From NCBI GenBank assembly GCA_965223545.1, contig OZ245006.1:7536505-7600504 (forward strand): 64,000 bases of DNA, written 5' to 3'. This stretch comes from Planctomycetota bacterium. Lineage in GTDB: Bacteria; Planctomycetota; UBA1135; UBA2386. Under the pieces are notes generated by a model, which had not been told where the DNA came from, searched no databases, and worked only from the letters and a program-made list of their open reading frames with translations. The position numbers and the translations under genes are program-made. The number at the start of each line of letters is the position of its first letter. Positions within the stretch are counted from its first letter, which is position 1. Below are positions 7,567-41,943 of the stretch, piece by piece.

Positions 7567-10500
7567 ATGTCGTCCTCCCCCGACCGTGTCGTCGTCGTCG
7601 GCGCGCGCGAGCACAATCTGCAGAACGTCGACGTCAGCTTTCCGCGCGACGCGCTGACCACGTTCACCGGCGTGTCCGGCTCGGGCAAGTCGAGCCTGGC
7701 CTACCACACGGTCTACCAGGAGGGGCAGCGGCGGTTCTTGGAAAGCCTGTCCAGCTATGCGCGCCAGTTCCTCGGCCGCATGGAGAAGCCAAAGGTCGAC
7801 CGCGTCGAGGGGCTGTCGCCGACCGTGTCGATCGACCAGAAGCAGGGCAGCCACAGTCCGCGGTCGACGGTCGGCACGCTGACCGAGGTGCTCGACTACT
7901 TGCGGCTCTTGTTCGCCCGGTTGGGCACGCCGCGCTGTCCGGTCTGCGATGCCGAGATCGAGGCCTGGTCGGTGGATCGGATCACCGAGACCGTGCTGCA
8001 GCGTTTCGCAGGGCAGCCCCTGCTCGTCTTGGCGCCGGTCGTGCGCGAGCGCAAGGGCGAGTATCGCAAGGAGCTGGCCGAGTTCCGCGCCCGTGGCTTC
8101 GTCCGTGCCCGCATCGACGGGCAGGTGCGGCGCCTCGACGAGGACATCGCGCTGCACCGCTACAAGTACCACACCATCGAGCTCGTGGTGGATCGCCTGC
8201 GCGTCGACGCCGCGCACAGCTCACGCCTGGCCGAGGCGGTCGAGCAGGCGCTGGGGTTGACCGGTGGGCTGCTGGCGGTGCTCTGCGAAGACGACTACCA
8301 GCTGTTCTCGACCCAGCGGGCGTGCCCGGACGGACACGGCGCCCTGCCGGAGCTCGAGCCGCGGCTGTTCTCGTTCAACAGCCCGATCGGCGCGTGCGCC
8401 CACTGCGACGGCATGGGCGAGGTGCACAGCTTCGCGGAGAGCTTGCTGGTGCCGGACCCCGACCTGTCGCCGCGCGAAGGCGGGCTGCTGTGCATCACCG
8501 GCGAGGGGCGATTGGCGTACAGCCAGCTCACGCTGGATCACCTCGACACGGTGGCCGCCGAGTACGGCTTCGACATGGACACGCCCTGGCGCGCGCTCAG
8601 CGCGGCGCAAAAGCGGGTGATGCTGCACGGCACCGGCAAGAAGAAGTTCGAGTTCGTCTGGCGCCGGCAAGGGCGCGGCTACTCGGCGCGCGGCAAGGAT
8701 CGCAAGGCGTTTCCGGGGGTGATCGCGCACCTGGAGAAGGTCTACCGCGGCGCGACGGCGCGTCACCTCGACCGGTTTCGGGCCTCGACCGCGTGCCCCG
8801 AGTGCGACGGCCGCCGGCTCAACGACGCCGCCTGCGCGGTGCGGTTCGACGGGCACAGCTTGCCGGAGGTCTCCGCGTGGTCGGTGGCCGAGGCGCGCGC
8901 GTTCTTCGACGACCTGGAGCTGACCGGCAACGCCCTGGCGATCGGTCGCGAGGTGGTGCGGGCGATCCAGCAGCGGCTGCAGTTCCTCGACGAGGTCGGC
9001 CTCAGCTACCTGACCCTGGATCGGCGCGCCGACACGCTGTCCGGTGGCGAGTCGCAGCGCATTCGGTTGGCGGCGCAGGTGGGCTCCGGTTTGCGGGGAG
9101 TGTTGTACGTGCTGGACGAGCCCAGCATCGGTCTGCACGCCCGCGACCATGAGCGGCTGCTGGGTACGCTGGCCGCACTGCGCGACCGCGGCAACACCGT
9201 CTGCGTCGTCGAGCACGATGAGGCGACGATGCGCGCCAGCGATCACGTCGTCGACGTCGGTCCCGACGCCGGCCGCGGCGGCGGGCGGATCGTAGTGTCG
9301 GGCACCGCGGCCGACGTCGCCGCCGCGCCGGCGTCGCTCACCGGCGCGTATCTGCGCGGCGAGCGTCGCATCGAGCTGCCGGCGGCGCGCCGGACCGACG
9401 ACTGCGGCGCGCTCGTGGTGCGCAATGCGCGCCACCACAACCTGCGCGGCATCGACGTCGAGCTGCCGCTGGCGCGCTTGGTGGCGGTCACCGGAGTCTC
9501 CGGCTCGGGCAAGTCGACCTTGGTCAACCATATCCTGAAGCGGGCGTTGCGGCGCGCGCTGCACGGCGCACTGGACGTGCCCGGCGCGCACGACCGCATC
9601 GAGGGCGTCGAGCAGATCGACAAGCTGGTGGAGATCGATCAGGCGCCGATCGGCCGCACGCCGCGCAGCAATCCCGCGACCTACACCAAGACGTGGGACC
9701 ACGTCCGCGATCTCTTCGCGGCGTTGCCCGAGTCGCGCGTGCGCGAGTACAAGAAGGGGCGCTTCTCGTTCAACGTCCGCGGCGGCCGCTGCGAGAGCTG
9801 CGAGGGCGCCGGCATCACCCTGCTCGAGATGCAGCTGTTGGCGCCGGTCGAGGTCGTCTGCGAGGACTGCGGCGGGCAGCGCTTCAATCCGGAGACCCTG
9901 GAGATCGAGCTCAAGGGCCACAACGTGCACGACCTGCTCGAGCTCAGCGTCGACGAAGCGCTCGCCTTGCTCGGCGCGTTCCCCAAGATCGCGCGACCCC
10001 TGCAGGCGCTGCACGACGTCGGTCTCGGCTACGTCAAGCTGGGCCAGCCCTCGACCACCTTGTCCGGCGGCGAGGCACAGCGCATCAAGTTGGCGACCCA
10101 GCTGCAGCGGCCACCCACTGGCCGCACGCTGTACTTGTTGGACGAGCCGACCACCGGCCTGCACTTCGAGGACATCCGCCGGCTGATGCAGGCGTTGCAG
10201 CGGCTCGTCGACGCGGGCAACACCGTGGTCGTCATCGAACACAACCTCGACGTGGTTGCCTGCGCCGACTGGATCATCGACCTCGGGCCGGACGGCGGCT
10301 CGGGCGGCGGCGAGATCGTGGGCACCGGCACGCCGGAGGAAGTGGCGGCGTGCGCGGGCTCGCACACCGGCCGTGCGCTGAAGGCCGCACTCGCTCCGCG
10401 CAAGGCGCCGGCGCGGCGGCGGGCCGCGCGGCGCCGCGCGAGCCAGCGGCCGACGCACCTCGAGGTGGTCGGCGCGCGGCAGAACAACCTGCAGTCGGTC

Positions 10501-13356
10501 GATGCGCGGTTGCCGCTGGATCGGCTGACGGTGGTGACCGGGGTGTCGGGGTCGGGAAAGTCGAGCTTGGCGTTCGACACCCTGTTCAGCGAAGGCCAGC
10601 GCCGGTTCGTCGAGAGCTTGTCGACCTATGCCCGGCGATTCCTCGGTCGCATGGACCGCGCCCCCGTCGATCGGCTTGAGGGCATCGGACCGGCGATCGC
10701 CATCGACCAGCGCGCCAGCCACCGCAGCCCGAGGTCGACGGTCGCCACCGCGACCGAGGTGCACGACTACCTGCGGCTGATGTACGCGCGCATCGGCCGG
10801 CCCCACTGTCCGGAGCACGGTCAAGAGCTGGTGCTGCACTCGCCGAGCAGCATCGCCCGCCAGCTGCGAGCCGAGTTCGAGGATGAGCGCGGCTACATCC
10901 TGGCGCCGGTGCGGATGCCAGAGGGCGTCCGCGGTGGTACCGAGGAGGGCCGCCGCGCGTTCCTCGATGCGCTGGTCGCGGGTTGGCGCGAGCAGGGGTT
11001 CGTGCGCGCCTGGGTCGACGGCGGCGAGCACCGGCTGGAGAAGCCGCTGCCGGCGTCCGCTGCCGCCGAGGCTGCGGTCGCGTTGGTCGTCGACCGGCTG
11101 CGGTTCGCCGATCGCGGCCGCGTCGTCGACAGCGTCGCGCAGGCCGGCGTGATGAGTGGCGGCCTGGTGATCGCGCGCACCACCGACGGCGCCGAACGCG
11201 TGTTCTCCACCGACCGTTCTTGCCCGCACTGTGGCGTGTCGGTGCCCGCGCAACCGCACCCGCGCTACTTCTCGTTCAACCACCACAGCGGAGCGTGCAA
11301 GGCCTGCGGTGGGCTCGGGCAGTCGGTGGCGTGCGATCCCGACCTCCTCGTCAACCTGCCGGAGCGGCCGCTGTTCGGCGGCGCGATCAAGCACCGCGGC
11401 GCTGCCTTCACGTTCTTGTCCAAGCGCAACGGCTGGTACCACAAGGTGGCCAAGCAGGTCGCGCAGCACTTGGGCTTCGACCTCACGGTGGCGTACGAGG
11501 AGTTGGCGCCAGAGCACCAGCGCGTGCTGATGTGGGGGCTCGAGGAGCCGCGCTTCGAGGTCACGTTTCGGCGCCAGCGGGCGAGCGGCAGTCGGAGCTA
11601 CAAGGTCGCCGCCAAGTGGAAGGGGCTGTGCTCTCAGGTCGAGCAGTGGTTTCACGGTCACGATCAGAGCCAGGCGCCGGAGCGGCTGTCGGCGGTGATG
11701 CGGGTCGGGTCGTGCCCGGCGTGCGAGGGCGACCGGCTGCAGCTGGCGCAGCGCCACGTGACCATCGGCAAGCGGCCGCTGCCGGCGGTCTGTCGGATGA
11801 CCGTCGACGACGCCCTCGCCCATCTGCGCCGGTTGCGCCTGCGCAAGGCGGAGCGGACCGTCGCCCAGGACATCCTCGCCGAGATCGACAACCGGTTGGG
11901 GTTCCTGTCCGCGGTGGGGCTCGGCTACCTGACCTTGGATCGCTCGGCGGCGACGCTGTCGGGCGGCGAAGCGCAGCGAATCCGGTTGGCGAGTCAGCTC
12001 GGCAACCAGCTGGTCGGCGTGCTGTACGTGCTCGACGAGCCGACTGTCGGGCTGCACCCGCGCGACACCGAGCAGCTGTTGCAGACGCTGCACTCGCTGC
12101 GCGATCTGGGCAACACCGTGGTCGCGGTCGAGCACGACGAGCAGGTGATCCGCAGCGCGGATCACGTGCTCGACGTCGGCCCCGGCGCAGGCCATCGCGG
12201 CGGTCGGCTCGTCGCCAGCGGCAGCCCCGAAGAGGTGGCGGCGGCCGACTCGCTCACCGGTCGCTACCTGCGCGGCGAGCTCGGCATCCCCGTGCCCGCC
12301 GCGCGCAGCACGCCCCGCGCGCACATCGCGGTGCGCGATGCGCGCTGCCACAACCTGCGCGGCGTCGACGTCGACGTTCCGCTCGGCGTTCTCGCCGCGG
12401 TCACCGGGGTGTCCGGCTCGGGCAAGTCGAGCCTGGTGATGGACGTGCTGCTGCCGCAGTTGCGGCAGCCCAAGCTGCGCGTCGACGGCATCGGCGATGC
12501 TTCGGTCGTGGTCGTCGACCAATCGCCGATCGGCACCACGCCGTCGAGCAACCCGGCGACCTACGCCGGGGTCATGACCCCGATCCGCGAGCTCTTCGCG
12601 GCGTTGCCGGAGTCACGGGTCAAGGGCTTTCGCGCCGGCCGCTTCTCCTTCAACGTCGCCGAGGGGCGCTGCCCGACCTGCGAGGGCAAGGGCCAGCTCC
12701 GCGTCGAGATGCACTTCTTGGCGGACGTCTGGGTCACCTGCGAGCTCTGTCGCGGCCGGCGCTACAACCAGGAGACCCTCACCGTGCACTACCGCGGCCG
12801 GACGATCGCGGACGTGCTGGAGATGGAGGTCGAGCAGGCGCTGCCGTTCTTCGCCAACTTGCCCAAGATCCGCGCACCGTTGCAGGCGCTCGCCGACGTC
12901 GGGCTGGGCTACCTGAAGCTGGGACAGCCGGCCAACACCCTGTCGGGGGGCGAGGCCCAGCGCATCAAGCTGGTGTCGCGGCTGTGCAAGGCGTCGCGCG
13001 GTCACGTGATCCACCTCCTCGACGAGCCGACGACCGGGCTGCACCTGGAAGATGTGCGCAAGCTGGTCGATGTACTGGCTCGGCTGGTGCGGGCCGGCGA
13101 CAGCGTGGTGGTCATCGAGCACCACCTCGACGTGATCAAGTGCGCCGATTGGGTGCTCGAGCTGGGTCCCGAAGCGGGCGATGGCGGCGGCCGCATCGTG
13201 GTCGCCGGCACTCCCGAGGAGGTCGCGGCGTGTCGCGACAGCCACACTGGGCGGTTCTTGGCGCCGCTGCTCGCGCCGGCTCGTGCGCCCCGGACAAAGC
13301 GCCCGCGGCGCACATCCGCCGGCGTTTCGCGCCGCAATCGGGAGCAGGCGCAGTGA
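7567..13356 (+). CDS. uvrA: Tandem-duplicated UvrA-like excinuclease ABC subunit A (two complete UvrA modules in one polypeptide)
   Basis: 1929 aa with 4x Walker A (GVSGSGKS[ST]), 4x ABC signature (LSGGE[SA]QRI[RK]L) and 4x Walker B (DEP[ST]xGLH). Each half has Zn-module cysteine pairs. Module 2 restarts at about nt 10450 (PTHLEVVGARQNNLQ) after an Arg/Ala-rich linker. Confidence 0.9.
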   Translation: MSSSPDRVVVVGAREHNLQNVDVSFPRDALTTFTGVSGSGKSSLAYHTVYQEGQRRFLESLSSYARQFLGRMEKPKVDRVEGLSPTVSIDQKQGSHSPRSTVGTLTEVLDYLRLLFARLGTPRCPVCDAEIEAWSVDRITETVLQRFAGQPLLVLAPVVRERKGEYRKELAEFRARGFVRARIDGQVRRLDEDIALHRYKYHTIELVVDRLRVDAAHSSRLAEAVEQALGLTGGLLAVLCEDDYQLFSTQRACPDGHGALPELEPRLFSFNSPIGACAHCDGMGEVHSFAESLLVPDPDLSPREGGLLCITGEGRLAYSQLTLDHLDTVAAEYGFDMDTPWRALSAAQKRVMLHGTGKKKFEFVWRRQGRGYSARGKDRKAFPGVIAHLEKVYRGATARHLDRFRASTACPECDGRRLNDAACAVRFDGHSLPEVSAWSVAEARAFFDDLELTGNALAIGREVVRAIQQRLQFLDEVGLSYLTLDRRADTLSGGESQRIRLAAQVGSGLRGVLYVLDEPSIGLHARDHERLLGTLAALRDRGNTVCVVEHDEATMRASDHVVDVGPDAGRGGGRIVVSGTAADVAAAPASLTGAYLRGERRIELPAARRTDDCGALVVRNARHHNLRGIDVELPLARLVAVTGVSGSGKSTLVNHILKRALRRALHGALDVPGAHDRIEGVEQIDKLVEIDQAPIGRTPRSNPATYTKTWDHVRDLFAALPESRVREYKKGRFSFNVRGGRCESCEGAGITLLEMQLLAPVEVVCEDCGGQRFNPETLEIELKGHNVHDLLELSVDEALALLGAFPKIARPLQALHDVGLGYVKLGQPSTTLSGGEAQRIKLATQLQRPPTGRTLYLLDEPTTGLHFEDIRRLMQALQRLVDAGNTVVVIEHNLDVVACADWIIDLGPDGGSGGGEIVGTGTPEEVAACAGSHTGRALKAALAPRKAPARRRAARRRASQRPTHLEVVGARQNNLQSVDARLPLDRLTVVTGVSGSGKSSLAFDTLFSEGQRRFVESLSTYARRFLGRMDRAPVDRLEGIGPAIAIDQRASHRSPRSTVATATEVHDYLRLMYARIGRPHCPEHGQELVLHSPSSIARQLRAEFEDERGYILAPVRMPEGVRGGTEEGRRAFLDALVAGWREQGFVRAWVDGGEHRLEKPLPASAAAEAAVALVVDRLRFADRGRVVDSVAQAGVMSGGLVIARTTDGAERVFSTDRSCPHCGVSVPAQPHPRYFSFNHHSGACKACGGLGQSVACDPDLLVNLPERPLFGGAIKHRGAAFTFLSKRNGWYHKVAKQVAQHLGFDLTVAYEELAPEHQRVLMWGLEEPRFEVTFRRQRASGSRSYKVAAKWKGLCSQVEQWFHGHDQSQAPERLSAVMRVGSCPACEGDRLQLAQRHVTIGKRPLPAVCRMTVDDALAHLRRLRLRKAERTVAQDILAEIDNRLGFLSAVGLGYLTLDRSAATLSGGEAQRIRLASQLGNQLVGVLYVLDEPTVGLHPRDTEQLLQTLHSLRDLGNTVVAVEHDEQVIRSADHVLDVGPGAGHRGGRLVASGSPEEVAAADSLTGRYLRGELGIPVPAARSTPRAHIAVRDARCHNLRGVDVDVPLGVLAAVTGVSGSGKSSLVMDVLLPQLRQPKLRVDGIGDASVVVVDQSPIGTTPSSNPATYAGVMTPIRELFAALPESRVKGFRAGRFSFNVAEGRCPTCEGKGQLRVEMHFLADVWVTCELCRGRRYNQETLTVHYRGRTIADVLEMEVEQALPFFANLPKIRAPLQALADVGLGYLKLGQPANTLSGGEAQRIKLVSRLCKASRGHVIHLLDEPTTGLHLEDVRKLVDVLARLVRAGDSVVVIEHHLDVIKCADWVLELGPEAGDGGGRIVVAGTPEEVAACRDSHTGRFLAPLLAPARAPRTKRPRRTSAGVSRRNREQAQ

Positions 13357-13991
13357 CGCGGCAGCGGGTGCCGCGCGGCGTGTTGTGGATCAGCGACGGC
13401 CGTGGCGACGTGGAGCGGTTGGTGGCGATCGCCGAGGCGGCGTTGGCCGGGGGGGTGTGCGGCGTGCAGCTGCGCGAGCCCGGGCTCGATGCGCGCGCGC
13501 TCGGCGCTGCCGCCGCGCGCATCCGGCCGCACTGCGACGCGGCCGGTGCCCTGCTCTGGATCAACGACCGCGCCGACGTCGCCGCCGCCACCGCGCACGG
13601 GGTTCATCTCGGCCACCGCTCGCTGTCGGCCGCAGCCGTGCGCCGCTGGGCGCCGGCCGACCTGTTGCTGAGCGTGGCGGTGCACGATGCCGAGGCGGCG
13701 GCGGGCGCAGGGGCGGACCGGGCGGACTGCGCGACCCTGGCGCCGGTGTTCGACACGACGTGCAAGCCGGGCGCGCGCCCACTGGGCGTGGCGGCGGCGG
13801 CGGCGATCGCGGCAGACGTCGCGCTCCCGATCTACTGGCTCGGCGGCATCGATGCCGCCCGCGCGGCGCAGCTGCGGGCGGTGCAGCCGTTCGGGCTGGC
13901 GGTGCGCAGCGCGATCGCCGCGGCCGCCGATCCTCGCGCGGCGGCCCGTGCCCTGGTCGCGGGGTTTCGTGGTGAGGAGGCCGCGCGGTGA
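13353..13991 (+). CDS. thiE: Thiamine-phosphate synthase family protein (ThiE/TenI-like)
   Basis: GTG start overlaps the uvrA-like stop (GTGA 13353-13356). Motifs are GVQLREPGL, LWINDRADVA, HGVHLG, LAPVFDTTCKPGARPLG and YWLGGI. Confidence 0.7.
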   Translation: MTRQRVPRGVLWISDGRGDVERLVAIAEAALAGGVCGVQLREPGLDARALGAAAARIRPHCDAAGALLWINDRADVAAATAHGVHLGHRSLSAAAVRRWAPADLLLSVAVHDAEAAAGAGADRADCATLAPVFDTTCKPGARPLGVAAAAAIAADVALPIYWLGGIDAARAAQLRAVQPFGLAVRSAIAAAADPRAAARALVAGFRGEEAAR

Positions 13992-14359
13992 ACACGTTGC
14001 GGGCGACGCGGGTGGCCATGCGGCTGGGGCTGCCGTTGTTCGTCGCCTCGGTCGCGTTGTTGTGGTGGTTCTTCGGTCTGCTGCGGGTACCGGACGGCAT
14101 GGACTCGATGCTGGACACCCACCCGCCGGGGACGACTTGCATCATCTGGAAGACGCCGCGTTCGGTCCCGGTCGGCGCGGTGGTGTTCTGCGATGTGGAG
14201 GGCGGCAGCTGGCTGGCCCGGGTCACGGCGGTGGCCGAGGACGGTGGCCTCGCCTTGCGCTGCGACAACCGAGCTTCCCGCTTTGTCGCCTTGGAACGGG
14301 CGTCGAGCTATCCCGCCGCAGCGGTGCGCGGCATGGTGCTGACCCAGTTTCCGCCGTAG
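13988..14359 (+). CDS. Small membrane protein, hypothetical (weak S24/S26 peptidase-like motif)
   Basis: 123 aa. GTGA overlap with thiE-like. One TM helix (LGLPLFVASVALLWWFFGLL), then VPDGMDSMLDT..GTTCIIWK, loosely reminiscent of the signal-peptidase fold. G/C-rich third positions. Confidence 0.5.
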   Translation: MNTLRATRVAMRLGLPLFVASVALLWWFFGLLRVPDGMDSMLDTHPPGTTCIIWKTPRSVPVGAVVFCDVEGGSWLARVTAVAEDGGLALRCDNRASRFVALERASSYPAAAVRGMVLTQFPP

Positions 14360-14422: not shown

Positions 14423-15355
14423 ATGGCAGGCAAGACCGAACGCGAATGGACCGCGTGGTTGGCGGAGCTGTTTCCGCGGCCGCGCTCGGTGCTGGTCGGC
14501 ATCGGCGACGACGCTGCGGTGGTCGCCGAGCGGCGCGGTGCCTCGGTGATCACCACCGATCCGGTGATCGAGGGCGTGCACTTCGACGCCGGTACGCCGC
14601 CGAGCGCGGTGGCGGCCAAGGCCGTCAACCGCAACTTGGCGGACTTGGCGGCGATGGGCGCGCGCCCGCACCATCTGGTGGCCTCCGTGTTGCTGCCGCG
14701 GCGCATGCCCGCGGCGCGCGTGCGGGCGCTGTTCATCGGGCTGCGCAACGCCGCGGTGCGCGCCGACTGCGCGGTGGTGGGGGGAGACGTCGGCGCCACT
14801 CCCGGGCCGCTGACCCTGGCGATCACCGCGGTCGGGCACCTCGGCGGGGCTGCGCTGCGGCGCAGCAACGCGCGCGCCGGCGACGCCCTGCACGTCACCG
14901 GTGACCTGGGCGGTGCCGCGCTCGGACACCACCTGCGCTTCACCCCGCCGGTCAGCGAGGGAGTGTGGTTGGCCGAGCGCACCGACGTCCGCGCCGCGAT
15001 CGACGTCAGCGACGGTTTGCTGCTGGACTTGGCGACCCTGCTGGCCGCGTCCGGCGGCCTCGGTGCCGAGCTCGACCGCGAGGCCGTGCCCATCTCGGCC
15101 GCGGCGCGCCGCCGCTCGAGGCGCAGCGGGCGGACGCCGCTCGAGCACGCGATGAAGGACGGCGAGGATCACGTGCTGTTGTTCGCGGTGCCGCGGGGGG
15201 GGCGACTGCCGCGCGGCGGGCCGCTGCGGCCGGCGGCGCGCCAGCCCATCGGTCGGGTCACGCGGGCACCCGGCTTGTGGCTCGTCGATCGAGAGGGGAC
15301 CCGCGTCCGGCTGGCGGCGGCCGGCTACCAGCACGAGGTCGGGGGCGGCCGGTGA
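14423..15355 (+). CDS. thiL: Thiamine-monophosphate kinase
   Basis: 310 aa from the AIR-synthase-related family, with IGDDAAV, TTDPVIEGVHF, NLADLAAMGA, VVGGD and IDVSDGLLLDL. Confidence 0.85.
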   Translation: MAGKTEREWTAWLAELFPRPRSVLVGIGDDAAVVAERRGASVITTDPVIEGVHFDAGTPPSAVAAKAVNRNLADLAAMGARPHHLVASVLLPRRMPAARVRALFIGLRNAAVRADCAVVGGDVGATPGPLTLAITAVGHLGGAALRRSNARAGDALHVTGDLGGAALGHHLRFTPPVSEGVWLAERTDVRAAIDVSDGLLLDLATLLAASGGLGAELDREAVPISAAARRRSRRSGRTPLEHAMKDGEDHVLLFAVPRGGRLPRGGPLRPAARQPIGRVTRAPGLWLVDREGTRVRLAAAGYQHEVGGGR

Positions 15356-15867
15356 CCGAGGTCGAGCGAGCGCTGTTTGCCGCCGATGAGGCGGCGACCC
15401 TCGCTCTCGGCCGTGCGATCGGCGCCCAGCTGCGCCGGGGCCAAGCCCTGGCGCTGAGCGGCGACCTCGGTGCCGGCAAGACCACGCTGGCGCGCGGCGT
15501 CGCGGTCGGGCTGCGGGTGGACGAGCCGGACGAGGTGTGCAGCCCGACGTATCTGCTCGTGGTCGAGCACCCGGGGCCCCTGCCGATGGTCCACATCGAT
15601 GCCTACCTGCCGGCCAAGACCCAGGCGTTCTTGGCCGATGGGGGAGTCGACTACCTGGCCGACCTCGGCGGGGTGGCGGTCGTCGAGTGGGCCGAGCGGG
15701 TCGCCACCCTCCTGCCGAGCGAGACCCTGTGGGTCGAGCTCGAGCGGGCGGAGCGGCGAGGGATCGCCGGCCGGCGCGCGCGTCTGCGGGGCCGATCGCC
15801 GACGTTCTCGTGGCTGAGGCCGGGCGCCCCCCTTGCCATCGCCGGATGCGAGGAGCTAAGTTGTTGA
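15352..15867 (+). CDS. tsaE: tRNA threonylcarbamoyladenosine biosynthesis ATPase TsaE
   Basis: GTGA overlap with thiL. Motifs are LSGDLGAGKTTLARG, SPTYLLVVEH, HIDAYL and VVEWAE. Confidence 0.85.
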   Translation: MTEVERALFAADEAATLALGRAIGAQLRRGQALALSGDLGAGKTTLARGVAVGLRVDEPDEVCSPTYLLVVEHPGPLPMVHIDAYLPAKTQAFLADGGVDYLADLGGVAVVEWAERVATLLPSETLWVELERAERRGIAGRRARLRGRSPTFSWLRPGAPLAIAGCEELSC

Positions 15868-20118: not shown

Positions 20119-21798
20119 ATGATGCGGCGTTATCTCACCCTGTTGCCCTTGCTGTGGGCTTGTTCGGAGCAACCGCCAGCCGGGGGCGCGGCTGCGGCCG
20201 CCCCGGAGGGGCAGGCGGCTGTCGGCCCTGCCACCCACCCGTTCGGCTTCGAGGTTTGGCGAGCGGACTTTCCGTTCGAGCCGCACCTGTCGCCCGCCGA
20301 GGATCGCTGGTACGGACACTCGCGGCGCCAAGCGCTGGAGCGGATCGTCGACAAGCTGCAGGGCAACTGCACGCGCGACGGTTGGCTGATGGCGATGGCG
20401 TTCTTCGAGCGCGCCGGCGAGGAAGCGGTGCCGGTGCTGGCCGAGGCCCTCGACCGCGCCCTGCAGACCAGCTCGATGGCGGACAAGGTGGAGAACATCG
20501 CCGAGGCGCTCGGCCGGATGGGGCACCTGGACTCCGATGACGTCGCCGAGGCGGTCTTCCGCGCGGCCCAGCACCGCAAGGAGTCGGTGCAGAAGAAGGC
20601 GATGATCGCCATGGTTCCGGCGGGCAACGCCGAAGTCGTGCGCCGCATGCTGCCAGCGCTCGGAGCGCTGCAGACGCGCAGCCAGGTCGCCCTGCTGCAG
20701 GCCGCGCGCGCCCACTTGCCCGAGGCCGAGGTCCGCGCGTTGTTCCGCGGTCTCCTGGTGCGGGAGTCACCGCACTTCAGCATGGCGGTCGACGAGACCT
20801 TGAAGATGCCGCCGCCGCAGGCGATGGACCTACTCGAGCCGCTGTGGGCGATGGCGCGCGGCGAGCTGCAGTGGTCGATTGCCGGCGTGATGCACGCCGT
20901 CGGCGACGCTCGTGGTACGCACTACCTGCGTTCGCAGCTGCGCAGCGACCTCAAGAACGCGCAGATCGCCGCCATCGGCGCCCTGAGCAAGTACGGGCTG
21001 GAGCCCCTGTTCGACGATGTCCTCAAGCTGAGCATCTCGCCGGATCCGCAGGTGCGGCAGGCGGTGATGGTCGCGGTCAGCGGAATCGACGAGGAGAACG
21101 TCAGCAACCTGCTCAGCACGTTCGCGGTCGATCCGGTGATCGACGTGCGGCAGATGGCGTTGCACGCGCTGGTGCAGCGCGGTGAGCGGACGTTCGTCGA
21201 GCAGCTGATCGACACGATGCGCACCGCGACCGGCACCAACCTGATGAGCACGATGGCCGATCTCGCCGCCTCGGGTGACGAGGAGGGGCTGATCGCGATC
21301 GTCTCGCGCATGGAGAACGCCGCCCCGGAGGAGCGCCGGCCGTACATCAAGGCCATCGCCCGGTCCACGGCGCCGTCCGCGTTCGATGCTTTGCGCTCCG
21401 TCTTCATGGAGCCCGAAGCGCCGATCGCCGGCGGGACCACGAACGTCGCCTACGCCGCCACGGTGATGCCGAACCAGCGCGCCGCGGGGGATCGGATGCT
21501 CGAGCTGTTCGACGCGCTGCCTGCCGAGGACTACCGGCGCCGCGCCTTCGCCCTGCACGCCATCGCCAACCTGGCGGCGGTCTCGGCGAAGGACCCGGAG
21601 TTCGCCGCGGAGGTCTATCGCCGCTGTCGCGCGCTGCTCGCCGACCGCGAGGCGATTCCCCAGCTCCGGCTCCTGGCCCTCGAATACCTGCGGCGCGACC
21701 TCACCCTCGACGACATGGTCGCCATCAAGCAGCAGCAGGAAACCGAGGACCCACCGATGCGCAAAGCGCTGTCGAGCTTCCTCTTCGAGTTCTTCTGA
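20119..21798 (+). CDS. HEAT-repeat lipoprotein
   Basis: 559 aa with lipobox LLWAC and repeated HEAT-like units (e.g. DPQVRQAVMVAVSGI, DVRQMALHALVQRG). Confidence 0.7.
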   Translation: MMRRYLTLLPLLWACSEQPPAGGAAAAAPEGQAAVGPATHPFGFEVWRADFPFEPHLSPAEDRWYGHSRRQALERIVDKLQGNCTRDGWLMAMAFFERAGEEAVPVLAEALDRALQTSSMADKVENIAEALGRMGHLDSDDVAEAVFRAAQHRKESVQKKAMIAMVPAGNAEVVRRMLPALGALQTRSQVALLQAARAHLPEAEVRALFRGLLVRESPHFSMAVDETLKMPPPQAMDLLEPLWAMARGELQWSIAGVMHAVGDARGTHYLRSQLRSDLKNAQIAAIGALSKYGLEPLFDDVLKLSISPDPQVRQAVMVAVSGIDEENVSNLLSTFAVDPVIDVRQMALHALVQRGERTFVEQLIDTMRTATGTNLMSTMADLAASGDEEGLIAIVSRMENAAPEERRPYIKAIARSTAPSAFDALRSVFMEPEAPIAGGTTNVAYAATVMPNQRAAGDRMLELFDALPAEDYRRRAFALHAIANLAAVSAKDPEFAAEVYRRCRALLADREAIPQLRLLALEYLRRDLTLDDMVAIKQQQETEDPPMRKALSSFLFEFF

Positions 21799-36512: not shown

Positions 36513-38540
36513 TCACAGGATGTCGAGGACGCCGTTGAGCTGGTTGGTGAGGGTCTCGACCGCGGCGCGGTAGTTCAAGTCGACCGAGATCTTCGAGTTC
36601 CACGGCAGCGGTTCCTTGTCCGCCACACCGCCAAGGGCGACCGCCGCGAAGGCCCGCGACAGCTCGGTGATGCTCTCGTCGTGCAGCATCTTGATCAGCG
36701 GGTCGATGGTCCGCTTGTCGCCGATGAAGCCCAAGGCGGAGGCGATGGCGCTCAGCTTGGCGACGTTGCGGTTGGTGTCCTCCATCAGCATTTGCTGTAG
36801 CGAGTTGGTCACCGACTTGTCGCCGAGCTTGCCCAGCGCGATCGCGGCCTGCTTGAGCAGGTCCGGCCGTCGCACCGAGTCGTCGACGATCTCGCGGATG
36901 GTCTCGCGCGAGCGGTCGTGGCCGACCAGCGCCAGGCCGATGCACAAGTAGCCGGCGAGCTCGTCCCGTTGGCGGTTGGCGTCGAGCAGGGCCCGCAGTA
37001 GTGGGGCCGCCTCCTGCGATCGGCAGAGCCCGAGGGCGACGGCGATCGCCGACAGGGTCTGACCGTTCTTCACCGACGCCAGTGCGCGGCGGAGCTCGAT
37101 CTCGACCTGGCCGGAGGTGGTCGCCCGGCCGTCGCTGGCGGTGCCGTGCGCCAGCACGCCCAAGGCGATCGCCGCCCACGGCTTGACCAACGCCTTGTTG
37201 CCCTTGGCGAAGATCGTCAGCAGCGCGTTGCGGTTGGCGTCGCCGCCGATCTGGCCGAGACCGATGAGCGCAAAGTTGCGGGTCTGCTGGTCCTTGGCGT
37301 TGGCGAAGGTGTCGCGCAGAGAGTGGCTGAAGCGGGCGTCGCCCGGGTTGTCCTCCGCCGGCTGGCACAGGATGCCGAGCGCCAGGGCGGCCGACTGCTG
37401 GATCTCACGGGAGCGCTGAGCACCGCCGAGCGCCGCGGCGAACGCCGCCTTGTACTCACCCGTCGAGTCACCGCCACGGCCGAGGAGCTGGGCGACCGCC
37501 GGCGGCACGTGGGCTTGTACGATCTGCTCGCCCGGACCCGCCGCCTTCCGGTAGTAGCGCCACAGAGTGTCGATGCACTCGTCCCGCAACGCGGCTTCGG
37601 TCGGTCGGATCAAGCGGATGCCGTTGATCGCCGCGACCGGAACGTTGCGGTCGATGATGCCGTGCTCGAGGGTCTGTTCCACGATCTCCCGCAGCGGCGC
37701 GTAGCAGCGGCGCTTGAACTCGGCGTTGTTGGACGCGTGTCCGAGCAGCCCCAGTCCGTAGCAAGCGAACGCGCGCGTCCGCGCGTCGACCGCCGGGCGG
37801 TCGACGAGCCTTTGGCCGGCGGCGGTGTCGCGGGCCAAGTCGGGTAGGTACTCGAGCGCGCCCTCGAGCTGCGAAATGCCCATCGCCAGCGCGGCGGTCT
37901 CGCGGATCTCCTGGTCGCGGCTCGGCAGCCGGTCCCGCATCACTTCGAGCAGGCGGAAGTCGGGGTGATCCAGGCCGATCTTGGCCAGCGCGACCATGCA
38001 GGACGAGACGATGTCGCGCTGGTCGGTGCTGTCGATGGCGCGCTTCAGCGCCGGCAGCACGCGGTGGACGACGTCGGCCTCGGTCGGCTTCATCGTGTCG
38101 CGGCCCAGCCTCCGGCGGCTGCCGCCCATGTAGAACACGTCCGAGCCGGTCGACGTCACGCTCGCGTGGATGGACTCCTTGAGGCTGATGTAGGGGTCCT
38201 TGTTGAACTCCCACCAGAATTGCCACTTGGTCAGGTCGTCGCCGATCGAGATCCCGCGTCCGCCGGTCCGCGTGCCACCGGCCGCGCCGCCACCGGAGCC
38301 GACGCCGGGGCCCGGGGTGTTGCCACCGGCCACGCCGGGCCGCGGCGTCACCGGCCCGGGACCGTTGGGACCGCCGGGCTGGCCAGGACCCGCCGGCGGC
38401 GGACGCTGCCCGCCGCCGCCGCCGGGGTTCGGCGGGACGACGTCGCCGGGACCGCGGTACTGGCCGCCGTGTGCCGATGCCGCCGCCGCGAACAGCAGGA
38501 TCGCGCTGCAGCAGCCGAGATTGCGTAGAGAGTGGTTCAC
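36513..38540 (-). CDS. Secreted HEAT-repeat protein, paralog A
   Basis: The track ORF (to 38984) is trimmed to GTG 38540, preceding signal peptide VNHSLRNLGCCSAILLFAAAASA. The predicted mature N-terminus is HGGQYRGPGDVVPPNPGGGGG, followed by a Gly/Pro-rich linker, WQFWWEFNKDPY and then HEAT repeats. Confidence 0.8.
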   Translation of the reverse strand: MNHSLRNLGCCSAILLFAAAASAHGGQYRGPGDVVPPNPGGGGGQRPPPAGPGQPGGPNGPGPVTPRPGVAGGNTPGPGVGSGGGAAGGTRTGGRGISIGDDLTKWQFWWEFNKDPYISLKESIHASVTSTGSDVFYMGGSRRRLGRDTMKPTEADVVHRVLPALKRAIDSTDQRDIVSSCMVALAKIGLDHPDFRLLEVMRDRLPSRDQEIRETAALAMGISQLEGALEYLPDLARDTAAGQRLVDRPAVDARTRAFACYGLGLLGHASNNAEFKRRCYAPLREIVEQTLEHGIIDRNVPVAAINGIRLIRPTEAALRDECIDTLWRYYRKAAGPGEQIVQAHVPPAVAQLLGRGGDSTGEYKAAFAAALGGAQRSREIQQSAALALGILCQPAEDNPGDARFSHSLRDTFANAKDQQTRNFALIGLGQIGGDANRNALLTIFAKGNKALVKPWAAIALGVLAHGTASDGRATTSGQVEIELRRALASVKNGQTLSAIAVALGLCRSQEAAPLLRALLDANRQRDELAGYLCIGLALVGHDRSRETIREIVDDSVRRPDLLKQAAIALGKLGDKSVTNSLQQMLMEDTNRNVAKLSAIASALGFIGDKRTIDPLIKMLHDESITELSRAFAAVALGGVADKEPLPWNSKISVDLNYRAAVETLTNQLNGVLDIL

Positions 38541-38963
38541 CTGGAGACCTGCCTTTGGCTTCGCGTGTCGTGCTCGTTTCGTTCCGGGGGCGGAGCGAGA
38601 GCCGGCGGCCGCCTGCGCGCAGGGGTCTCCAGGGACGGTTGGGATCGCTGCAAGAGTCGGGCCGCGCCGTTGGCAGGGCGGGTTGGGCCGCGTTCGGCGG
38701 TCGGTGTCACGCGGGCGTGCCAATACCGGCGTTCGTCGAGAATCGCCTCGGCCCCGGCCTCGGGGCGTTCGCGGCGACCGCCGGGATTCGGTCGACGGTG
38801 GGGCGATGACGTCGCAACGCCGGCGGGCGCGAGTTCGAGGAGGGTTGGCGGCCGGTGCCCGGCCGGCATCATGGTCCGAGTGTGCTATGTCGTCGGGTTG
38901 CTGTGGGGCCTGAGCGTCCGGGGCCGAGAATCTTCGCGCGGCGACAACCTTTCGGAAGGCTCG

Positions 38964-39434
38964 ATGGCGCTGGAACTTCGACAACGCAGCTCCCGGAGGC
39001 TCGAAGACAACACTGGCCTCTGGGCTCAGCGCGGCCGCCGGCGACCGCGGGACCCGCGACCGACGCTCGGGTCGCGGAATGCTCCGTGTTTGGTTGCGGC
39101 CTCGGCCGCGCTGAGCTTCTTGCTCTGGGCTCGGGTCGCGTTCGTCACGCTCTTTCCGGGGATTGCCGCGCGGGTCGGCATCGAAGCCGAGTCGATGCTG
39201 GTGTACGCGATCGAGAGTGCGCTGGAGCGGGAGCTCGAGAAGATCCCGACCGGAGGCCTCGGGCCGACCATTCTCAATGCGGGCCTCTGGCTCGCCGCAT
39301 TCGGCATCGCCGTCTTTGGTGGCATCTCGGTCTGTCGAGCGTGTAAGCAGAATGCGAGACGCGCTTGGGCATTCGCGGTCGGTGGAGTGGTCGCGGCCTA
39401 CCTGACTTGGCCCGATCCGTTCAATCCGGGGTGA
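38964..39434 (+). CDS. Small hypothetical membrane protein between the two HEAT paralogs
   Basis: 156 aa with about 3 hydrophobic helices and moderately G/C-rich third positions. No homology recognised; it could be spurious. Confidence 0.35.
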   Translation: MALELRQRSSRRLEDNTGLWAQRGRRRPRDPRPTLGSRNAPCLVAASAALSFLLWARVAFVTLFPGIAARVGIEAESMLVYAIESALERELEKIPTGGLGPTILNAGLWLAAFGIAVFGGISVCRACKQNARRAWAFAVGGVVAAYLTWPDPFNPG

Positions 39435-39558: not shown

Positions 39559-41592
39559 TCACAGGATGTCGAGGATCCCGTTGAGCTGGTTGGTCAGGGT
39601 CTCGACCGATGCGCGGTAGTTCATGTCGACCGCGATCTTCGAGTTCCACGGCAGCGGCTCCTTGTCGGCCACGCCACCCAGGGCCACCGCGGCGAACGCG
39701 CGGGACAGCTCGGTGATGCTCTCGTCGTGCAGCATCTTGATCAGCGGATCGATGGTCCGCTTGTCGCCGATGAAGCCCAGCGCCGAGGCGATGGCGCTCA
39801 GCTTGGCGACGTTGCGGTTGCTGTCATCCATGAGCATCTGCTGCAACGAGTCGGTCACCGACTTGTCACCGAGCTTGCCCAGCGCGATCGCGGCCTGCTT
39901 GAGCAGGTCGGGACGGCGCACCGAGCTGTCGACGATCTCGCGGATCGTCTCGGTGGCCCGGTCGTGCCCCATGAGGGCAAGGCCGATGCACAGGTAGCCG
40001 GCGATCTCGTCGCGCTGGCGGTTCTTGATCAACAGCGAGGTCAGCGTGTCCGCGGACTCCTTGAACTTGCACAGGCCCAGCGCGATGGCGATCGCCGACT
40101 GGGTCTGGTCGTTCTTGATCGAGTTGATCGACTTGTGGAGGTCGGTGCCGATCTGGGTGTCGGCGGCCGCGCCCTCACCGGCCGCCTCGGCGGCGTTGAA
40201 GGCCAGGACGCCGAGCGAGACCGCCGCCCATGGCTTGACCAGGGCTTTGTTGCCCTTGTCGAAGATCTTCAGCAGCTCGTTGCGGTTGGTGTTGCCACCG
40301 ATCTTGCCGAGCGCCATCAGCGCGAAGTTGCGCGTCTGCTGGTCCTTGCCGTCGTTGAAGTACTTCAGCAGCACTTGGCTGAACTTCCTGTCGTCCTTGT
40401 TGTCCTCGACCGGCTGGCAGAGGATGCCGAGGGCGACCGCGGCCGACTGATAGATCTCGTTGGCGCGCTTGACACCGCTGAGCTCCTTGGCGAACGCGTC
40501 CTTGTACTTGCCATCGGTGTCGCCACCGCGGCCCAGCAGCTGAGCGACGGCCGGCGGCACGTGGGACTGGACCATCTGCTCGCCCTGGCCGGCGTCCTTC
40601 TCGTAGTACTGCCACAGCGCGTCGACGCACTCCTTGCGCAGGCCTTCGTCGCCGTCGGGCTGCAGCAGGCGAATGCCGTTGATCGCCGCGACCGGCACGT
40701 TGCGGTCGATGACGCCGCTGTCGACGGTCTCCTTGAGCACGTCGCGCAGGGCCTCGAAGCACTGCCGCTTGATGTCGCTCTGGTTGGAGGCGTGGCCGAT
40801 CAGGCCGAGGCCGTAGCAGGCGAACGCGCGGGTGCGCGAATCGACGGCCGGGCGGTCGACCAGCTTCTGCCCGGCAGCGGTGTCCCGCGCCAGGTCCGGC
40901 AGATACTCGAGGGCTGCCTCGAGCTGCGAGATTCCCATCGCCAACGCGGCGGTTTCGCGGATCTCCTGGTCGCGGCTCGGCAGGCGCTCCCGCATCACGT
41001 CGAGGATGCTGAAGTCCTGGTGGTCCTTGCCGATCTTGGCCATCGCCACCATGCACGACGAGACGATGTCGCGCTGGTCGGTGCTGTCGATGGCGCGCTT
41101 CAGCGCCGGCAGCACGCGGCCCATGATGTCGGCCTCGGTCGGCTTCATGGTGTCCTTGGCTTCCGCGCGACGGCTGCCACCCATGAAGAACTCGTCCGAT
41201 CCCGTCGTCACCTGGCTGGCGTGGATCGACTCCTTCAAGTTGATGTAGGGGTCCTTGTTGAACTCCCACCAGAACTGCCACTTGGTCAGGTCGTCACCGA
41301 TCGGTGCGCCGCGACCACCGGTCACCGGGCCGGCACCAGGAGCGGCGGGGCCGCCCGTGGCCGGGCCGGCCGGGCCGGGCGTGCCGGGCGCGGACGGACC
41401 CGGAGTCGTCGGGCCGCTCGGCCCGGGCGTGCCGGGGCCCCGCGGGCCGGGAGCGCTGCCGCCACCACCACCGGGGTTCGGCGGGACCACGTCGCCGGGT
41501 CCGCGATACTGGCCGCCGTGGGCGTATGCGGTGTCCGGCAGGGCGAACAGGAGGCCGGCGCATGCCAGGCCGCTCAGCAGAATCTTGTTCAT
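39559..41592 (-). CDS. Secreted HEAT-repeat protein, paralog B
   Basis: Trimmed to ATG 41592 (MNKILLSGLACAGLLFALPDTAYA signal peptide; GAGGAA upstream). Same architecture and same predicted mature N-terminal 21-mer as paralog A. Confidence 0.85.
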   Translation of the reverse strand: MNKILLSGLACAGLLFALPDTAYAHGGQYRGPGDVVPPNPGGGGGSAPGPRGPGTPGPSGPTTPGPSAPGTPGPAGPATGGPAAPGAGPVTGGRGAPIGDDLTKWQFWWEFNKDPYINLKESIHASQVTTGSDEFFMGGSRRAEAKDTMKPTEADIMGRVLPALKRAIDSTDQRDIVSSCMVAMAKIGKDHQDFSILDVMRERLPSRDQEIRETAALAMGISQLEAALEYLPDLARDTAAGQKLVDRPAVDSRTRAFACYGLGLIGHASNQSDIKRQCFEALRDVLKETVDSGVIDRNVPVAAINGIRLLQPDGDEGLRKECVDALWQYYEKDAGQGEQMVQSHVPPAVAQLLGRGGDTDGKYKDAFAKELSGVKRANEIYQSAAVALGILCQPVEDNKDDRKFSQVLLKYFNDGKDQQTRNFALMALGKIGGNTNRNELLKIFDKGNKALVKPWAAVSLGVLAFNAAEAAGEGAAADTQIGTDLHKSINSIKNDQTQSAIAIALGLCKFKESADTLTSLLIKNRQRDEIAGYLCIGLALMGHDRATETIREIVDSSVRRPDLLKQAAIALGKLGDKSVTDSLQQMLMDDSNRNVAKLSAIASALGFIGDKRTIDPLIKMLHDESITELSRAFAAVALGGVADKEPLPWNSKIAVDMNYRASVETLTNQLNGILDIL

Positions 41593-41943
41593 CAGGTACG
41601 ATTCCTCAGAGAGGGAAGAGTGTTCGGCTGGGGACCCGGCGCGGGATGGACCCGCCAGCCGGCGTCGCGATGGTTCCGAAGTCGTCCAACAAGCAAAATC
41701 GAGGCCCGACCGGGGCTCTCGATGGGAAAACCGCGCGGGCGCGCCGCGGTTCGCCGTGGATTCGCGGAGATGGTGCCCAGAATAGCGCCAGAGCGGATGG
41801 GGTGCAGCGTTTCCCTGGGAGTCGCGGGACAATTGTGGGTTTGCGGTTGTTACGCGGGCGCAACAACAAGGAGAGGGGCTGCGGAAGCTCGCAATCGGGA
41901 AACCTCTGGCATCCGCGCCCAGCCGCCTTCAACTGAACGCCCC

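Follow-up and report, generated by a model that had tools for sequence, protein, structure and literature searches.

Class I UvrA, the canonical damage sensor subunit, is a chain of ~940 amino acids (aa) that works as a homodimer, and its models and structures (NF001503/TIGR00630; among others 2R6F, 3UWX, 3PIH, 3ZQJ, 9GA2-5 and 9GXK) share a layout of two ABC nucleotide-binding domains, a UvrB-binding domain, an insertion domain and three zinc modules, together with DNA-binding arginines and a wedge tyrosine. A fused design has been catalogued as well: the 1809-position model NF001885 / PRK00635, 'excinuclease ABC subunit A', describes a double-length UvrA annotated as a damage sensor of nucleotide excision repair (NER), and we take it to have been built on the ~1800-aa UvrA of the Chlamydiaceae. 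Class II UvrAs, among them D. radiodurans UvrA2 (2VF7), DrrC and Ecm16 (7SH1), share the ABC/zinc core fold but have no UvrB-binding domain, and their roles lie outside NER (PMC9328131, PMC3167621). Here we analyse a tandem uvrA gene in a 64,000-nucleotide stretch of a Planctomycetota bacterium genome (contig OZ245006.1, forward-strand positions 7,536,505 to 7,600,504), which we call the window and whose first letter is position 1 of all coordinates below. Each half of the encoded protein has the full class I layout, including the DNA-binding arginines and the wedge tyrosine. Unlike the canonical homodimer of ~940-aa chains, however, the two halves form one chain of 1929 aa that cannot split into free monomers. 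The gene is a genuine single one and encodes two class I UvrA modules in covalent fusion; we consider it likely that its product is a natural single-chain dimer that serves as an NER damage sensor.

The gene and the parts of its product, all on the + strand, are as follows.

7567..13356, +, tandem class I uvrA, 1929 codons plus stop; a single open reading frame (ORF) that UvrA equivalog models match twice
7567..10371, +, N module, a complete class I UvrA (aa 1-935); NF001503 1283.6 bits, 2r6f 1035 bits
7969..8289, +, UvrB-binding domain of the N module (aa 135-241); UvrA_inter 112.4 bits, 4dfc_B 1.7e-21; equivalents of R216 and E222 kept
8440..8757, +, insertion (DNA-binding) domain of the N module (aa 292-397); Pfam UvrA_DNA-bind 67.5 bits
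10372..10449, +, linker between the modules (aa 936-961, RALKAALAPRKAPARRRAARRRASQR); has no counterpart in canonical UvrA past the C-terminal helix
10450..13287, +, C module, a complete but more diverged class I UvrA (aa 962-1907); TIGR00630 1082.5 bits, NF001503 1119.9 bits
10840..11181, +, diverged UvrB-binding domain of the C module (aa 1092-1205); UvrA_inter 40.1 bits; R216 equivalent kept, E222 equivalent Ala
11335..11688, +, insertion (DNA-binding) domain of the C module (aa 1257-1374); UvrA_DNA-bind 53.5 bits; beta-hairpin at C-half residues 368-389 in the AlphaFold2 model
13288..13353, +, basic C-terminal tail (aa 1908-1929), predicted to be disordered; predicted local distance difference test (pLDDT) score <50 at C-half residues 947-968

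The reading frame from 7567 to 13356 opens with ATG and is translated into 1929 aa without an internal stop; its GC content at third codon positions, 0.92, resembles that of the neighbouring genes, and an identical protein is present in a public collection, on a contig of 8,065,702 bp. When one genome per species was scanned, 476 stretches proved to encode relatives of the tandem UvrA, and the best 80 of these served as related loci, with the labels of metagenome-assembled genomes (MAGs) taken at face value. In all 80, which come from independent assemblies, the region around the junction (query residues 900-1000) lies within one in-frame alignment, and at least 57 of them have a single stop-free ORF over both modules.

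Both modules are complete by several measures. Pfam finds two UvrA_inter domains (PF17760, cut-off 23.3 bits) and two UvrA_DNA-bind domains (PF17755), and the NCBIfam equivalog models match twice, each time near full length. The N half passes the cut-offs of both models, scoring 1283.6 against 1147 bits for NF001503 and 1241.6 against 729.8 for TIGR00630; the C half passes that of TIGR00630 (1082.5 bits). All four ATPase sites can be placed, with Walker A motifs at aa 35-43, 643-651, 992-1000 and 1614-1622, LSGGE signatures at aa 491, 832, 1464 and 1792, Walker B motifs at aa 513, 855, 1486 and 1815, and H-loops at aa 547, 889, 1520 and 1849. Ligands of Zn1 to Zn3 are present in each half, which makes six zinc modules in total; 11 of the 12 ligand motifs were located by motif position, and the twelfth, the second Zn1 motif of the N half (CPDGH, ~aa 253), was read from the translation and the alignment. 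These results bear out the sequence-only reading of the locus, an earlier account made from the letters of the DNA, which had described one ORF of 1929 aa that carries two complete UvrA modules with all four ABC sites intact, zinc-module cysteines and inserts of UvrB-binding-domain length. It had also proposed aligning the halves with each other and with canonical UvrA: in a pairwise alignment of 953 positions, aa 1-935 and aa 962-1929 are identical at 48%, and compared with G. stearothermophilus UvrA the N half is 53% and the C half 48% identical. The structure of that protein, 2r6f, matches both halves over their whole length (N half 1035 bits, C half 901 bits). With 1929 aa and two non-identical modules, the protein departs from the ~940-aa homodimer subunit of class I in its chain organisation.

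The Zn1 motifs differ in pattern between the halves. In the N half (window positions 7936-7950 and ~8323-8337) they read CxxC...CxxxH, as in M. tuberculosis UvrA, and in the C half (10807-10821 and 11221-11235) CxxH...CxxC, the pattern of the G. stearothermophilus and E. coli proteins. Family members vary in that either half may show CxxC/CxxC in place of its own pattern.

The predicted fold of the more diverged half is that of a class I UvrA. An AlphaFold2 model of the C half alone, built from an alignment of 32 sequences, has a pLDDT of 86.2 and a predicted template modelling (pTM) score of 0.74, with only the last 22 residues disordered. In its UvrB-binding domain most 10-residue blocks have a pLDDT of 81-94 and one falls to 68, and the insertion domain is also modelled confidently. 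The best matches in the PDB are 2r6f_A and 3uwx_A, with TMq values of 0.81-0.82 over ~960 columns, against 0.64-0.67 for the class II UvrA2 (2vf7). The C-half model thus fits class I structures better than it fits 2vf7 or 7sh1, both of which are weaker matches.

For residue conservation we aligned the halves of 58 family members with the UvrAs of E. coli, G. stearothermophilus and M. tuberculosis. In all four ATPase sites the Walker A lysine, the Walker B Asp-Glu pair, the SGGE core of the signature and the H-loop histidine are 100% conserved, the first signature residue varying in one site, and the cysteines of Zn2 and Zn3 are likewise 100% conserved. Manelyte et al. list residues that have been mutated in E. 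coli UvrA (PMC3025350); the equivalents of K37, K646, G502, R216 and R712 are present in 58 of 58 members in both halves, that of R730 in 57 of 58 in both halves, and the positions of R722 and R724 stay Arg or Lys. Nirwal et al. (PMC12796330) drew attention to a wedge tyrosine, which is found in 57 of the 58 N halves and in every C half. With so little variation at positions for catalysis, DNA binding and the wedge, both modules are under purifying selection as working UvrA modules.

The sequence-only reading had further noted that the halves have diverged, above all in the UvrB-binding and insertion regions of module 2, and had suggested that a covalent pseudo-dimer could be functionally asymmetric. 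The C half is consistently the more diverged: canonical UvrAs share an identity of ~0.53 with N halves and of 0.48-0.50 with C halves. In the UvrB-binding domain, N halves of the family are 0.52 identical to one another and C halves 0.38, and the ratio of C-half to N-half divergence is 1.30-1.42 there; in the ATPase cores and in the insertion domain it is 1.06-1.13. At the threshold used, 4DFC, an isolated UvrA domain, was matched by the N half alone. In the passage of PMC3025350 that cites Pakotiprapha 2009, R216 and E222 define the surface bound by UvrB and Mfd. The E222 equivalent is Glu in 58 of 58 N halves and in 45 of 58 C halves; in the C half of the protein studied here it is Ala, and it is a residue other than Glu in the closest relatives (loci L001, L002, L004, L005, L008, L054, L057, L059 and L070). 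The insertion domains of N and C halves are only ~0.20-0.24 identical to each other, and each type has its own conserved signature. The divergence of the UvrB-binding region of module 2 is thus borne out by domain scores (112 against 40 bits for UvrA_inter), by a 1.3- to 1.4-fold faster rate and by the change of E222 to Ala. Functional asymmetry is a reasonable idea, but as judged from these alignments its degree is modest and it is centred on the UvrB-binding domain of the C half, most functional residues being kept in both halves; at the level of the family, both docking domains look functional.

The linker was quoted in the sequence-only reading as Arg/Ala-rich, and so it reads in the translation: it is basic, ~26 aa long and runs ...SHTGRALKAALAPRKAPARRRAARRRASQRPTHLEVVGAR.... 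In relatives we compared a junction window (query aa 937-966) that reaches into structured residues on either side, beginning in the last helix of module 1 (…HTG-RAL…L) and ending in the first strand of module 2. Among the 58 family members it measures 28-73 residues, is unconserved and is always in frame. Its composition is rich in K, R, P and A in the Planctomycetota clade and acidic or rich in Thr and Gly in the clade labelled Gemmatimonadota/Latescibacterota. Because length and composition vary and conservation is absent, the linker looks as expected of a passive flexible tether that carries no functional motif. A DNA-binding role for its arginines is not favoured; the charge is not kept, and other clades have acidic or Thr/Gly-rich junctions.

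Two-module UvrAs are a large and architecturally varied group. Among the matches listed, at least 120 clusters contain proteins of ~1540-2340 aa (most of them >=1900 aa) with 47-74% identity and 80-100% query cover, mostly from Planctomycetota MAGs and labelled 'excinuclease ABC subunit UvrA'. The Planctomycetota part of the 80 best loci includes Brocadiaceae/Kuenenia, Pirellulaceae, Rhodopirellula and Phycisphaerales, and other MAGs among them are labelled SAR324, Deltaproteobacteria, Latescibacterota, Gemmatimonadota and Fimbriimonadaceae. In an exhaustive HMMER search, the C half was run against 1.84 billion representatives clustered at 50% identity; each of the best 150 hits has two UvrA modules. 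Among the 127 of these that are complete, 44 have UvrB-binding and insertion domains in both modules, the same layout as the protein described here; 32 are without the insertion domain in module 2, 31 are without the UvrB-binding domain in both modules, and the remainder are mixed. The two-module architecture pointed out by the sequence-only reading is therefore real, but the rarity implied there is not: with 476 stretches and 150 of 150 representatives, it is far commoner. Regular-expression searches also hint at loss of a signature or Walker A motif from one site in many representatives; these hits were not checked by alignment and we do not rely on them.

How does this family relate to the described double-length and class II proteins? 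Against NF001885 the protein scores 1297.3 bits where the cut-off stands at 3054, and it is the first half of the model to which the N half and the C half alike align best. It therefore belongs to a different lineage of tandem UvrA; five other representatives of ~1800 aa also fall under that cut-off. Nor is it a class II UvrA, because a UvrB-binding domain is present in both halves. The open-access full text that we searched held no functional study of a fused, tandem or duplicated UvrA, the likeliest reviews lying outside that text. The fused design is already catalogued in databases and experimentally uncharacterised, which agrees with the statement in the sequence-only reading that such proteins are known but not known to be functionally described: an NCBIfam model of 1809 aa exists, and the full text searched contained no study of a tandem UvrA.

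The relationships among the halves bear on the origin of the fusion. In quartet tests on ATPase-core columns with three canonical references, the pairing of N with N and C with C halves was the best in 83% of quartets, and the nearest neighbour of every half was a half of the same type. The canonical references lay nearer the N halves in 70% of quartets, and mean distances were 0.69 between N and C halves, 0.56 between N halves and references and 0.63 between C halves and references. This clustering of halves by type indicates, on these distances, a single old fusion at the root of this family, common to the Planctomycetota and to the MAGs labelled SAR324, Latescibacterota, Gemmatimonadota and Fimbriimonadaceae, with vertical and probably horizontal spread thereafter. 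The source of the fusion may have been either an ancient tandem duplication followed by faster evolution of the C half, or two paralogues that had already diverged. In a neighbour-joining tree of all two-module representatives, other families have N and C clades of their own and the deep branches are very short; this tree contains only three canonical outgroups, and we draw from it no number of independent fusions overall.

We propose that the two ~940-aa modules, joined by a flexible and unconserved linker, would fold back on each other and so make up, within one chain, a pseudo-dimer that corresponds to the UvrA2 homodimer of canonical UvrA. Such a pseudo-dimer would bind DNA through both signature-II/zinc-finger surfaces and both insertion domains, use its four ATPase sites in damage probing, and then pass the lesion to UvrB. 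Fusion would free dimerisation from its dependence on protein concentration and would let the halves specialise; since the modules are only 48% identical, the pseudo-dimer would be intrinsically asymmetric. The N module would retain the canonical UvrB/Mfd-binding domain, and because the docking domain of the C module evolves faster and in this clade has lost one of the two contact residues defined by mutation, UvrB is probably loaded preferentially on one side. The analysis shows a continuous gene, its domain content, conserved motifs and residues in both halves, the modelled fold of the C half and the distribution of the family; from there we infer pairing within the chain, a role in NER and asymmetric UvrB loading.

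Even in homodimeric UvrA, recent cryo-electron microscopy shows that the protomers split the work between a recognition insertion domain and a support insertion domain, the complex goes through UvrA2UvrB1 before UvrA2UvrB2, and binding of the second UvrB reduces the dimer interface from ~2849 to 1189 square angstroms (PMC11985968). In a fused UvrA such asymmetry would be built in; the interface could loosen, and free monomers would not be released. A stronger version of the same idea makes the fused protein the sole UvrA of these genomes and a hard-wired asymmetric sensor, in which the N half is the canonical dock for UvrB and Mfd, the diverged docking and insertion domains of the C half have acquired a fixed and distinct role, and an obligate intermediate with one UvrB forms without dissociation of the dimer. 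The C role could then be the 'recognition' or the 'support' function, which in the homodimer is allotted ad hoc, or the docking of Mfd instead of UvrB. We hold this version only tentatively and think it rather doubtful as a whole.

Several observations weigh against a single-chain NER sensor. The C half scores 1119.9 bits with NF001503, just under the cut-off of 1147. Published models have the interface of the UvrA dimer loosening or parting at hand-off (PMC11985968), and a tether may constrain that step. Finally, no uvrB, uvrC or separate canonical uvrA lies in the 64-kb window.

Alternatively, the modules might pair between chains, N with N' and C with C' or head to tail, giving dimers of tandems or longer assemblies with at least four modules. 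The halves are only 48-50% identical and differ more from each other (0.69) than from canonical UvrAs (0.56 for N halves, 0.63 for C halves), so self-type interfaces could have been retained. The tether, however, hugely raises the effective concentration of the partner half, and the junction window, just 28 aa in some members, favours an intramolecular partner if geometry allows; canonical UvrA, moreover, acts as a dimer and not as a tetramer (PMC3167621, PMC11985968). We regard pairing between chains as unlikely.

It is less probable still that the fused protein is an accessory paralogue, concerned for example with tolerance of adducts or intercalators as proposed for class II, with a separate canonical uvrA performing housekeeping NER. 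UvrA paralogues with roles outside NER are known in Ecm16 and DrrC (PMC9328131), and many other two-module clusters are without UvrB-binding or insertion domains. Here, by contrast, both modules keep their UvrB-binding domains and R216 is invariant, which are class I traits absent from the drug-resistance class (PMC9328131, PMC3167621), and the N half lies above both UvrA equivalog cut-offs. The neighbours of the gene are housekeeping genes (thiE-like, thiL, tsaE, dxr, rseP-like and alaS) with no biosynthetic or resistance cluster nearby, and the protein is conserved across the genomes of hundreds of species. The chance that a sequencing or assembly error at the linker masks a stop and a start, so that two adjacent uvrA genes were read as one, is practically negligible: the sequence-only reading had named such an error as what would undo it, and it is excluded because all 80 loci are in frame across the junction (at least 57 as single ORFs), linkers differ in length and sequence among independent assemblies, the lone frameshift seen (L058) sits inside the C module and away from the linker, and the C module opens with PTHLEVVGAR, where there is no Met or other plausible start. 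The broken copy just mentioned (CAXBFC010000161.1) changes frame at ~10104-10110, at query aa 1337-1346, through pseudogene formation or an assembly indel, and is the only one among the nine loci whose alignment frames were inspected individually.

The tandem uvrA is the first gene of a co-directional run that continues with a ThiE-like gene, a 123-aa ORF, a ThiL-like AIRS protein, TsaE and an ECF sigma factor. Features around it are listed here.

13353..13991, +, ThiE-like (TMP-TENI) gene; Pfam TMP-TENI 133.8 bits; its GTG start overlaps the uvrA stop; genomic context with no part in repair
13988-14359, +, 123-aa ORF with no Pfam match, between the ThiE-like and ThiL-like genes; overlaps the ThiE-like stop
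15352-15867, +, TsaE, in the downstream co-directional run
6465-7496, -, VanZ-like gene, divergent, upstream of uvrA
4876-6258, -, IS110-family transposase, two genes upstream of uvrA; DEDD_Tnp_IS110 and Transposase_20
63156-63239, +, tRNA, the only Rfam match in the window at the gathering threshold

The start codon of the ThiE-like gene (GTG, 13353-13355) and the uvrA stop codon (TGA, 13354-13356) overlap as GTGA. This coupling and the thiE-like/thiL/tsaE neighbours, which had struck the sequence-only reading as an odd placement, are real, but they amount to local synteny in a housekeeping region, the rest of the 64-kb window encoding dxr, an RseP-like protease, a CCA-adding-type enzyme and alaS. 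A ThiE-like gene lies downstream in 29 of the 80 related loci, adjacent in some and ~4-5 kb off in others, and ThiL is found in 11; most loci below ~55% identity show neither, one exception being L039, with a ThiL match. A functional link to the thiamine or threonylcarbamoyladenosine (t6A) genes was rejected, as the synteny is almost wholly confined to close relatives and the spacing varies. In many of the loci L006-L029 (61-64% identity) the ThiE-like gene lies ~5 kb past the end of uvrA, which suggests an insertion there or a loss in the lineage of the window. Relatives of the 123-aa ORF occupy the same position in 11 related loci, and the VanZ-like and IS110 genes have no counterparts near uvrA in the related loci. 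Elsewhere in the window, HEAT repeats are the sole Pfam matches of three large proteins (20119-21798, +; 36513-38984, -; 39559-41832, -).

For specialists the existence of the protein will hold little surprise, because annotation pipelines already call it UvrA; the tandem UvrA is a useful natural tool and not a new kind of system. Two-module UvrAs are untreated in the open-access text searched and pipelines label them simply 'UvrA', and their breadth merits a survey. In homodimeric UvrA each mutation strikes both protomers, so that questions about ATPase sites, UvrB docking, insertion domains and dissociation are hard to separate: what role each of the four ATPase sites plays, whether a second UvrB-docking domain is necessary or one suffices, whether the insertion domains do different work, and whether the dimer must part for the lesion to be handed to UvrB. 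A natural single-chain UvrA, in which any site can be altered in one half only, offers a means of assigning protomer-specific roles. If the tandem UvrA is a working NER sensor in hundreds of species, full dissociation into monomers would not be required for repair.

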